Source: a virus
Length of the DNA: 64,000 nt
Reading direction: 5' to 3' (one strand)
IMG/VR virus record: IMGVR_UViG_3300009149_007655
Part shown: positions 57,906 to 59,797 of the stretch, piece after piece
Position numbering within the stretch: the stretch's first letter is position 1
Layout of the letters: every line of letters begins with the position of its first letter
Made by a program: the position numbers and the translations under genes
The notes under the pieces: model-generated
Databases searched by the model: none
What the model was told of the DNA's origin: nothing
Seen by the model: the letters and a program-made list of their open reading frames with translations, nothing else

Positions 57906-58403
57906 GTGATAATACTTGATATAAAACAACCAGGATTATTTTTAGAAATACCAGGGTTTAGTCCGGTACGAACTCCAGCTAAAATTGATATTACTAAACA
58001 TGACACAAGTCTTATAATTAGAAGATTAGCATCCCTTGGTGTTCAAGAATATACCATATCTCAAGTAGAAGACCCAAAAATACAAAAGTCTCCTCCTATT
58101 AAAATTGAAAAAGATAAACCTATAGATATCAATAAAAGACTCGGAAGAATAGAAGCTCTATTAGAAAAATTAGCAGAAACTGGTCCTGTAGATTTTAATG
58201 GATCTATAGTTAATCTTATAGATGGTAAAGAGTCTTTACCAAAATCAAGATATAATTATGAGGACGAAGATGAAATTTTTATTCCCAAAATAAAAACCAC
58301 AGGAATGAAAATGGAGGGAGATCTATCCCAATCAATTGAAGAAACTAATGATGATACAAACGAATCTGCAGATCTCCTTAAAAAATTAAAGGATAAAAAA
58401 TAA
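57906..58403 (+). CDS. hypothetical protein
   Basis: 165-aa ORF. Its stop overlaps the start of the actin-like gene (TAATG). Confidence 0.3.
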   Translation: MIILDIKQPGLFLEIPGFSPVRTPAKIDITKHDTSLIIRRLASLGVQEYTISQVEDPKIQKSPPIKIEKDKPIDINKRLGRIEALLEKLAETGPVDFNGSIVNLIDGKESLPKSRYNYEDEDEIFIPKIKTTGMKMEGDLSQSIEETNDDTNESADLLKKLKDKK

Positions 58404-59443
58404 TGGATACATTAACAGATAAAGTTCCAACTAAATCAAAAAGTAAGGTTGCCATAGGATTGGATGTCGGCACAATGAATCTTGTCTGCTCAAGAAGTGA
58501 TGCAAAAGATAGCAAACTTACAAGAAATGTTTTCTTAAGACTTGATCCAGAAGAAGTGAATGTATCTGAAATGTCAAATATCTCCTACGTACAAAGCGAT
58601 GACGGAAAAGAATTATTTATAGTTGGTCAAGATGCCTTTCAATTTGCTAATATATTTAATAAAGAAATATCACGACCAATGAAAAATGGTCTTATATCTC
58701 CAGATGAAATAGATGCTATTGATGTATTATCTTTAATGATAAAAGGATTGATTGGGTCTGTTAGAAATAAAGATGCGTATTGTTCTTACAGTGTGCCGGC
58801 AGAAGCAATAGATGAAGGCAGATCTGTTACTTATCATGAAAGAGTATTCGGAAGAATTTTGAATAACATTGGTGTTAATCATACTCCAGTAAATGAAGCA
58901 ATGGCAATTATATATTCTGAATGTGCAAAAGAGAAATTTAGCGGAATCGCTTTATCATTCGGAGCAGGAATGTGCAATACCTGTGTTTCCTATAAAGGAA
59001 TCGAAGCACTTACATTCTCAACTGCAAGGAGTGGAGATTGGATTGATAAAAATGTTGCTGAGTCTTTAAATATGATAACAAATAGAGTTACTAGTATTAA
59101 AGAAAAACATTTAGATCTTGAGAAGGGATTCACTTCTATAAAGAACAAAAAGACAAAAAGAGTATTGGAAGCATTAGAGTATTATTATGAATCTCTTGTA
59201 TCTTATACCATAAAAAGAATAATAAAAGAATTTGAGGAAAAGGTTGATATTGAAATAGACGAAGGTATTCCTATTGTAATATCTGGAGGTACAAGTATGC
59301 CTCCTGGATTTCTTAGATTATTCTCAGAAACTATAAAAAAATATGAACTTCCTTTTGAGGTAAGTTCAGTACGAATGGCAAAGAATCCAATGACTGCAGT
59401 ATCAAATGGATTACTTGTTAAAACAATGAGTGATATCAATTAG
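58403..59443 (+). CDS. actin-like ATPase (ParM/MreB/Hsp70 superfamily)
   Basis: Phosphate-1 VAIGLDVGTMNLVC, phosphate-2 IALSFGAGMCNTCV and adenosine motif VISGGTSMPPGF in the canonical order. 346 aa. Confidence 0.6.
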   Translation: MDTLTDKVPTKSKSKVAIGLDVGTMNLVCSRSDAKDSKLTRNVFLRLDPEEVNVSEMSNISYVQSDDGKELFIVGQDAFQFANIFNKEISRPMKNGLISPDEIDAIDVLSLMIKGLIGSVRNKDAYCSYSVPAEAIDEGRSVTYHERVFGRILNNIGVNHTPVNEAMAIIYSECAKEKFSGIALSFGAGMCNTCVSYKGIEALTFSTARSGDWIDKNVAESLNMITNRVTSIKEKHLDLEKGFTSIKNKKTKRVLEALEYYYESLVSYTIKRIIKEFEEKVDIEIDEGIPIVISGGTSMPPGFLRLFSETIKKYELPFEVSSVRMAKNPMTAVSNGLLVKTMSDIN

Positions 59444-59455
59444 GAGGAACTTATA

Positions 59456-59797
59456 ATGTTTAAAGAAGCTGAAAAAATGGTTGATAATATTCTTGATGAA
59501 CAAGTTCTTGGTTTCAAAGAGATGGAAGAATTGACCGACTCGATGCTTGATGAAATAAAAGGTCCTGGTGGACATACTCCAGATGGTAGTGGTCCACCTC
59601 CTCACGGAAAGGGTCAAGGGCAAGGAAAAGGAAAGACTCCTTGTAAAGAAGATGAAGATTTATCTGAAAATGCTTATAAAGAATTTTTTAAAGCAGAACT
59701 CAGTAAAGCTGGAAAACCAATAACAAAAATGTCTCCTGATGAAAAGAAGGCATTCTTTGGAAAAGTATCTAAAAAATGGAAAGCTAAAAAATCCTAA
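59456..59797 (+). CDS. small Gly/Lys-rich protein downstream of the actin-like gene (candidate adaptor/DNA-binding partner)
   Basis: 113 aa with an acidic N-terminal half, a GPGGHTPDGSGPPPHGKGQGQGKGK linker and a lysine-rich C-terminus. Confidence 0.35.
   Translation: MFKEAEKMVDNILDEQVLGFKEMEELTDSMLDEIKGPGGHTPDGSGPPPHGKGQGQGKGKTPCKEDEDLSENAYKEFFKAELSKAGKPITKMSPDEKKAFFGKVSKKWKAKKS

Follow-up and report, generated by a model that had tools for sequence, protein, structure and literature searches.

The 64,000 nucleotides (nt) of viral DNA analysed here (IMG/VR virus record IMGVR_UViG_3300009149_007655; the whole stretch is called the window below) encode an actin of the Volactin family, directly preceded by a small gene that is conserved with it. 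Our preferred explanation is that they form a phage Volactin filament system with an upstream adaptor-like partner, which positions or moves a phage structure, and we hold it with slightly better than even confidence. A sequence-only reading of the same DNA had proposed a ParMR-like positioning system, made of an actin-like ATPase and the small protein encoded after it. The actin-fold ATPase part of that proposal stood, the protein being a Volactin with a fold like that of filament-forming actins, but the ParM-type motor and the ParR part did not. The two open reading frames (ORFs) described there, of 346 and 113 amino acids (aa), were found at exactly the positions given for them, and the 165-aa ORF upstream was missing from it. 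The three genes are as follows.

57906-58403, + strand: candidate partner or adaptor, 165 aa, GTG start, conserved directly upstream of the actin
58403-59443, + strand: Volactin-family actin-fold ATPase, predicted filament subunit, 346 aa, ATG start (Pfam PF25216)
59456-59797, + strand: small modular accessory protein, 113 aa, ATG start, an ORF with a ribosome-binding site

The actin and its distribution

The 346-aa protein matched the Volactin profile (Pfam PF25216) with an E-value of 6.8e-74 and a score of 249.7 bits against a cut-off of 35. The match spanned residues 17-339 of the protein and positions 2-319 of the 321 profile positions, and was thus full length. With this score and end-to-end coverage, membership of the Volactin family is far beyond chance. 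Other actin families gave no comparable result. The window actin had no match to MreB_Mbl (Pfam PF06723), and the NCBIfam MamK and salactin models scored 17-20 bits against cut-offs of 400, so that the MamK threshold (NF040964, 19.8 bits) was not reached. The PHROG family annotated as a partition protein gave a weak partial match (E = 1e-3). The window actin did not fall within the ParM, StbA or Alp families, and no PDB chain was detectable from it by sequence (phmmer).

The nucleotide-binding motifs had been reported in the correct order, which was borne out in an alignment of the window actin with 43 homologues. All five actin/ASKHA motifs occur in order, and they are invariant across the 44 sequences. 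In the window actin, phosphate-1 reads G19-L-D21-V-G23-T24, connect-1 reads N164-E165, phosphate-2 reads S185-F-G187-A188-G189, and the adenosine motif reads G295-G296-T-S-M-P300-P-G302-F303. The connect-2 positions are likewise invariant.

An AlphaFold2 model of the actin, built on the homologue alignment, reached a predicted local distance difference test (pLDDT) score of 89.1 and a predicted template modelling (pTM) score of 0.87. MamK and BeeR were the top Foldseek matches of this model (both E = 2e-15), followed by MreBs and eukaryotic actins. Its structural neighbours are the filament formers BeeR, MreB, crenactin and MamK, which are alike in fold and share only 17-19% sequence identity with it. 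Hsp70, sugar kinases and R1 ParM were not among the closest structures, and the 346-aa protein had no Hsp70 or sugar-kinase Pfam match and no Hsp70 substrate-binding domain. An assignment to a sugar-kinase or Hsp70 fold, which the sequence-only reading had named among the results that would speak against it, was returned by neither the model nor the profile searches. The 346-aa protein is predicted, from its family and its modelled fold, to be a filament-forming actin. VolA of Haloferax volcanii (HVO_2015), which belongs to the same Pfam family by full-length profile match, forms dynamically unstable cytoplasmic filaments in vivo (PMC10869688). VolA is chromosomal and archaeal, whereas the window actin is a phage gene in a bacterial-virus context.

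A word-index search returned 2,480 homologues of the actin, and the best 120 of these 2,480 showed 64-86% identity to it. The exhaustive search of 50%-identity representatives gave 1,025 clusters at E <= 1e-3 and 316 at E <= 1e-30. Two peptide patterns alone yielded 122 confirmed loci in IMG/VR, on contigs of up to 572 kb, and relatives in INPHARED were limited to two unannotated huge phages of 485 and 595 kb. The nearest cellular relatives among those found were chromosomal genes of Planctomycetota (37-41% identity). As judged from these searches, the actin is strongly conserved within a widespread lineage of uncultivated jumbo phages. Eighty-seven viral loci were split into clades by their bit score against a close-clade profile.

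Clade A: 23 loci, 60-100% identity to the window actin (the close loci)
Clade B: 6 loci, approximately 40-45% identity to the window actin
Clade C: 58 loci, approximately 30-40% identity to the window actin

Near-duplicates occur among these loci (L003/L004/L005/L020 and L025/L026/L027), and the independent observations are somewhat fewer than the counts.

Its gene set and synteny mark the window as a fragment of the genome of a tailed jumbo phage with low GC content. Encoded in the window are a baseplate-hub OB domain, RecA, topoisomerase II, ribonucleotide reductase, a clamp-loader ATPase and helicases. Relatives whose actins are 66-69% identical share its gene order on contigs of 180, 304 and 310 kb, the latter two being GCA_024449895.1 JAANSX013255440.1 and ERZ23498568 SOLA22-1 scaffold_12. 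An actin identical to that of the window is on record from a 66,363-bp contig. The actin module lies within a tightly packed block of + strand genes, which starts past a strand switch and a GC-skew minimum near 50 kb.

Canonical inteins, some with HNH, were found in 14 of 149 Volactin representatives. Their insertion sites number three or more and all fall within or next to the phosphate-2 loop; Cys191 of the window actin coincides with one of these sites. The occupation of ATP-binding loops by inteins points to a strongly conserved gene under selection. The carriers are listed here.

Intein carriers: P0124, P0125, P0127, P0129, P0131, P0149, P0151, P0161, P0177, P0186, P0187, P0197, P0237, P0246

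The upstream partner and the downstream protein

The 165-aa ORF starts after a gap of 2 nt from the stop of a NUDIX hydrolase gene (57903), and its own TAA stop overlaps the actin ATG (TAATG, 58401-58405). By this arrangement, partner and actin are translationally coupled. Word-index searches with the 165-aa and 113-aa proteins gave only 3-4 matches, and local hidden Markov model (HMM) searches over the loci were therefore used. The partner HMM matched in all 23 clade-A loci, in 20 of which the partner ended at the actin start or within approximately 220 nt of it. It was displaced upstream of the actin by 0.7-0.8 kb in L001 and L024, and by 6 kb in L023. Homing-endonuclease ORFs of the HNH/NUMOD type occur at differing points of the syntenic block (window, 61908-62642, + strand; L024, ~6128-6952), and the one in L024 separates the partner gene from the actin gene.

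Beyond clade A, the partner HMM matched in L037, L038 and L063, and the C-terminal motif pair of the partner was visible by eye in L018, L039, L040, L041 and L044. This pair consists of an acidic stretch leading to [FY]-[IV]-P and, 20-40 residues further on, an amphipathic helix of the form D-[SA]-A-x-x-L-x-x-L-[KR]. A regular expression for the pair hit the ORF just upstream of the actin in 23 of the 87 viral loci, against 1.1% of other ORFs. In full-length hhalign comparisons of the partner families, clade B was related to clade C (93.5%, E = 3.5e-8) and to clade A (71%, E = 4.7e-6). Judged by this conservation, the constant companion of the actin is the 165-aa protein and not the 113-aa protein downstream.

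The AlphaFold2 model of the partner, built on 4 sequences only, showed a confident N-terminal beta-beta-beta-beta-alpha-beta domain (residues 1-55), a helix (75-91), a disordered region (96-149) and a C-terminal helix (151-163). In the window protein, the first motif is [DE]-x-F-I-P (F125-I126-P127), and the second lies in the amphipathic helix 151-163 (ESADLLKKLK). The protein gave no significant match in Pfam, PHROG, NCBIfam or PDB, and a search of its profile against PDB returned coiled-coil noise. A DNA-binding fold was not recognised in it, and neither a promoter region nor repeats were found upstream of its gene. Its build of head, linker and terminal motifs, and the preservation of the motifs while the remainder diverges, argue for an adaptor-like protein. 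In ParR, too, a folded domain is combined with a flexible region, and a terminal helix docks on the actin. We infer that the short motifs of the partner dock onto the window actin.

The TAG stop of the actin (59441-59443) overlaps an AGGAGG box, 8 nt before the ATG of the 113-aa gene. The acidic head and lysine-rich tail ascribed to the encoded protein were confirmed: residues 1-40 have an isoelectric point (pI) of 4.2, and residues 69-113 have a pI of 10.0 with 13 Lys and Arg residues. A Gly/Pro-rich linker forms the middle. The database search with the whole protein found three relatives only. The proteins encoded in this slot in syntenic loci have a Lys-rich domain of 44 aa in common, in which Y, FF, FF and W are conserved; F8, F30, F31 and W38 were invariant in the alignment of this domain (A2). 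The domain lies near the actin in 15 of the 23 clade-A loci and was missing in 8 (local iterative HMM), whereas several clade-C loci carry it 2.5-3.2 kb upstream of the actin. The downstream slot of L028 is empty, and a glycosyltransferase gene of the GT9-like family described below directly follows its actin. In the entire 64-kb window, the Lys-rich domain occurs once.

The acidic N-terminus carries a motif of its own, MVDxxLD (MVDNILDE at residues 8-15 in the window), which was found in the downstream slot of 10 of the 23 loci, with approximately 0.4 expected by chance. It is present also in slot proteins without the Lys-rich domain, and one or both of these elements mark 20 of the 23 clade-A loci. 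Neither the 113-aa protein nor its Lys-rich domain matched Pfam, NCBIfam, PDB or a known DNA-binding family, and when members of the two small-protein families were scanned against Pfam and PHROG, no match was significant. The proposal of a ParR-type adaptor failed here, as no ParR or ribbon-helix-helix match was found, the N-terminus is acidic instead of a basic ribbon-helix-helix, and the Lys-rich domain is limited to 15 of 23 loci. On these comparisons, the 113-aa protein is a real, modular and fast-evolving accessory protein, and it is not ParR by any criterion applied. Stop-codon read-through from the actin into the 113-aa ORF was considered and rejected. The two ORFs share a frame in the window (59456 - 58403 = 1053), and the corresponding offset of 1027 in L003 showed that this is not conserved.

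Proposed role and competing explanations

In the proposed mechanism, the 346-aa actin would form dynamic filaments with ATP within the infected bacterium. It would work as a two-gene module with the coupled 165-aa protein, the N-terminal domain of which may hold a cargo or an anchor, while the [FY]-[IV]-P motif and the C-terminal helix, at the end of a long linker, would dock on the actin. The task of the module would be to place or transport a phage structure, which could be replicating DNA, a replication compartment or capsids, in the manner of PhuZ or AlpA/AlpC. Of the two ends of the 113-aa accessory protein, the basic C-terminal domain could attach to nucleic acid and the acidic N-terminal motif to the filament.

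Relatives of the module give hints of its target. The huge-phage Volactins of L038 (6737-8002) and L063 (6674-8023) have an HTH_23 domain at the N-terminus (25.9 and 26.1 bits, cut-off 24.6). These helix-turn-helix (HTH) fusions hint at DNA, and the link between module and DNA is suggested by fusions in relatives only. A late or assembly context is hinted at by clade C, in which genes beside the module weakly match phage Mu Gp36 and a tail-terminator family, and by clade B, in which the neighbours look structural by eye only. The Planctomycetota relatives form a chromosomal operon in ordinary surroundings, with the order ~340-aa coiled-coil protein, Volactin and HTH_ParB-Volactin. It was seen on contigs of metagenome-assembled genomes (MAGs; L008, L010, L011, L016, L012-L015 and L100), and in L012-L015 the first gene is fused to the actin. 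The operon gives the impression of a cellular actin system with two paralogues and a DNA-binding domain of its own, and we found no description of it. The unfused first-gene proteins end in EFRPS and, approximately 35 aa later, SALERLKAMR, which resembles the phage motif pair; we treat this resemblance as a lead at the level of motifs only.

The closest functional precedent would be AlpA/AlpC of the Corynebacterium glutamicum prophage CGP3, by analogy of gene order. There the adaptor gene precedes the actin gene in a joint transcript (PMC4446434), and without the AlpC system viral DNA is not efficiently replicated and positioned (PMC4446434, PMC5539076). The window locus has the same order of partner and actin, with overlapping stop and start. 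AlpA binds a consensus in the promoter region directly before its own operon (PMC4446434), whereas the window partner has neither an upstream intergenic region, given the 2-nt gap, nor a recognisable DNA-binding fold. AlpC comes from a small prophage, and the window actin from lytic-type jumbo phages. The closest conceptual parallel among jumbo phages would be PhuZ of the Chimalliviridae, the spindle of which positions the nucleus and delivers capsids (PMC13282480, PMC8314001). Both are filament systems of jumbo phages, that of the window a predicted one, and both occur alongside a phage multisubunit RNA polymerase. PhuZ has the tubulin/FtsZ fold and the window protein the actin fold, and no chimallin-like protein was detected among the window ORFs scanned. 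The RNA polymerase subunits of the window also differ in being unsplit. With ParMRC of plasmid R1 the locus shares an actin-fold ATPase and a small adjacent protein.

Several points weigh against our preferred explanation. Ser185, which opens phosphate-2, is invariant in the alignment with the 43 homologues. In actin, MreB and ParM an Asp opens this motif, and with Ser in its place the nucleotide chemistry may differ. The window actin itself has no DNA-binding domain, and no centromere-like repeats adjoin the module. The HMM of the clade-A partner N-domain did not reach into other clades, and hhalign found no significant relatedness between the Planctomycetota partner and the phage partners. 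The conserved linkage to the GT9-like gene hints at a glycan-related role instead. Filaments in vivo are known only from VolA of H. volcanii, and it is from there that polymerisation is extended to the phage members. Two further features of the window bear on the alternatives.

52495-52591, no strand assigned: tandem array of 4.6 copies of the 21-bp unit AAATCTAAAGAAGAATACCAT (Tandem Repeats Finder score 152)
59838-61091, + strand: GT9-like (heptosyltransferase-fold) glycosyltransferase, 417 aa (Pfam Glyco_transf_9, E = 2.8e-8)

Repeat families D1-D4 were found in the window. The 21-bp array stands at the start of the one intergenic gap of notable size, which heads the + strand block and lies beside the strand switch and the skew minimum; 5.8 kb and five genes separate the array from the actin. 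It can also be read as a heptad repeat within a doubtful 49-aa ORF with a TTG start. Arrays of 20-21 bp with unrelated sequences (3.4-4.7 copies) occupy the syntenic gap in L003 (~4566-4647, L003/L020), L025 (~1795-1888) and L032 (~1413-1484), and L001 has a weak one there. The L025 array is non-coding, as its period is 20. No array was seen at the syntenic gap in L002, L024, L030, L035 and L036. The array may behave as an iteron or operator array, and its position beside the skew minimum fits an origin at least as well as a centromere.

The GT9-like ORF is open from 59739, and its start is most likely the ATG at 59838, since the resulting 417 aa fit the 414-434 aa of relatives. The protein matched NCBIfam heptosyltransferase II with E = 1.5e-8, far under the cut-off of that model, and WaaF and WaaC in PDB at E = 0.005-0.01. 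By these matches, the GT9-like proteins are remote heptosyltransferase-fold proteins. Clustering of the ORFs within approximately 5 kb placed the family downstream of the actin in 23 of 23 clade-A loci. It occurs in 12 clade-C loci as well, where the gene order differs from that of clade A. In 10 of these 12, which include the 595-kb and 572-kb phages, the gene ends 0.2-0.3 kb upstream of the actin. An ORF of approximately 75 aa with the motif W-x-I-P-x-F stands between the GT9-like gene and the actin in L019 (GT9 4754-5758) and L078 (GT9 5808-6770).

ParMRC-type segregation, in which the actin would push genomes apart with the 113-aa protein as a ParR-like adaptor and the 21-bp array as centromere, would explain why a gene with a strong ribosome-binding site directly follows the actin and why its product has a basic 44-aa domain (pI 10.0) that occurs once in 64 kb. 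We consider it unlikely, because the actin lies outside the ParM and Alp families and the 113-aa protein combines an acidic N-terminus with the lack of any ParR, ribbon-helix-helix or solved-structure match. The Lys-rich domain is missing from 8 of the 23 close loci, and the slot of L028 is empty. HTH-actin fusions among relatives would suit segregation, and so would an array that heads the gene block and recurs there in some relatives; it is, however, 5.8 kb off, absent in several relatives and at least as well placed for an origin or operator. A role in envelope or glycan organisation is somewhat improbable in our view. Here the actin and its partner would, like MreB, organise the GT9-like and downstream sugar-modifying genes for host-surface remodelling or virion glycosylation, or the GT9-like enzyme would glycosylate the filament or the partner. 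MreB is among the top structural matches, and GT9-like genes adjoin the actin in two divergent clades (~31-34% actin identity), on opposite sides of it and with differing gene order. Clade-A loci run on into a large island of glycosyltransferase, sulfotransferase and methyltransferase genes. A cellular relative (P0220, 1160 aa) has Volactin fused to the polysaccharide co-polymerase domains Wzz, GNVR and ParA-like BY-kinase, but this fusion is a single case, and most clade-B and clade-C loci are without GT9 linkage. From reading the sequence only, neither end of the actin showed an evident membrane-targeting helix, and VolA filaments cross the cytoplasm and do not track the membrane (PMC10869688).

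VolA is also a determinant of cell shape in the rod-to-disk transition (PMC10869688), and some jumbo phages reshape their hosts (PMC13282480). The phage actin could accordingly interfere with or replace the control of the host over its cytoskeleton, for example by making the cell larger or rounder for a large virion burst, and the cellular relatives in Planctomycetota operons would agree with this. The locus gives no pointer to host cytoskeletal targets, however, and the clade-B and clade-C neighbours suggest a virion-assembly or late context instead; we regard such a takeover of shape or division as improbable. The Ser in place of the phosphate-2 Asp would agree with an actin-fold ATPase that does not polymerise and has no cytomotive role, for instance a scaffold resembling chaperones, kinases or PilM/FtsA. 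This is very unlikely, since the best structural matches are all filament formers, the Hsp70 and sugar-kinase hallmarks are lacking, and the founding member VolA polymerises in vivo (PMC10869688).

The phage cytoskeletons known so far are the PhuZ tubulin, which occurs in nucleus-forming jumbo phages, and a few actins of the ParM/Alp type from prophages and phage-plasmids. By its profile matches, the window actin belongs to a different family from the latter. Text searches of two 2026 jumbo-phage reviews and of a 2020 huge-phage survey gave no mention of a phage actin, and by the titles and abstracts listed none of the literature using the word volactin appears to concern viruses. The volactin paper leaves volactin-binding factors unknown, and its main text mentions neither the upstream partner nor a GT9 linkage (PMC10869688). 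We speculate that a hitherto unrecognised actin-based cytoskeleton, made of Volactin and a dedicated adaptor that is sometimes HTH-fused, may be common in jumbo and huge phages and organise infection as a counterpart of PhuZ; this wider claim is tentative. Polymerisation of the phage Volactins would show that large phages have enlisted both actin and tubulin, each independently, for organising infection. The 165-aa protein would then be a candidate binding partner for the Volactin family. With the same arrangement of actin and upstream partner seen in Planctomycetota, it would be reasonable to look for an equivalent partner of cellular volactins, and the locus makes a link of an actin filament to a glycosyltransferase open to testing.

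Other features of the window and its relatives

The host of the phage is suggested to be bacterial, as L002 encodes an SLT lytic transglycosylase and heptosyltransferase-like genes are present. Several close relatives (P0015, P0102, L006 and L007) were binned in archaeal MAGs of Pacearchaeota, Heimdallarchaeota and Thermoplasmatales, which is probably mis-binning of low-GC viral contigs. Megablast with the 50-64 kb stretch found no near-identical DNA in INPHARED. The promoter scan was uninformative in this AT-rich DNA, with 77 sites against 76 expected. The following genes were annotated in addition.

18389-22480, - strand: RNA polymerase beta homologue, 1363 aa, unsplit
22484-25495, - strand: RNA polymerase beta' homologue, 1003 aa, unsplit, adjacent to the former
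56845-57903, + strand: NUDIX hydrolase, 352 aa, directly before the 165-aa ORF

The top PHROG matches of the two polymerase subunits, both full length, were families without assigned function, followed by jumbo-phage RNA polymerase subunit families. An 838-aa ORF (12366-14882, - strand) encodes a vault-like protein with a major-vault-protein shoulder domain (E = 7.7e-20) and a Vault_3 repeat, and it had no match in PHROG. The NUDIX hydrolase of the window has a C-terminal extension of approximately 170 aa with hydrophobic segments at its end, and its relatives are 186-193 aa in total.

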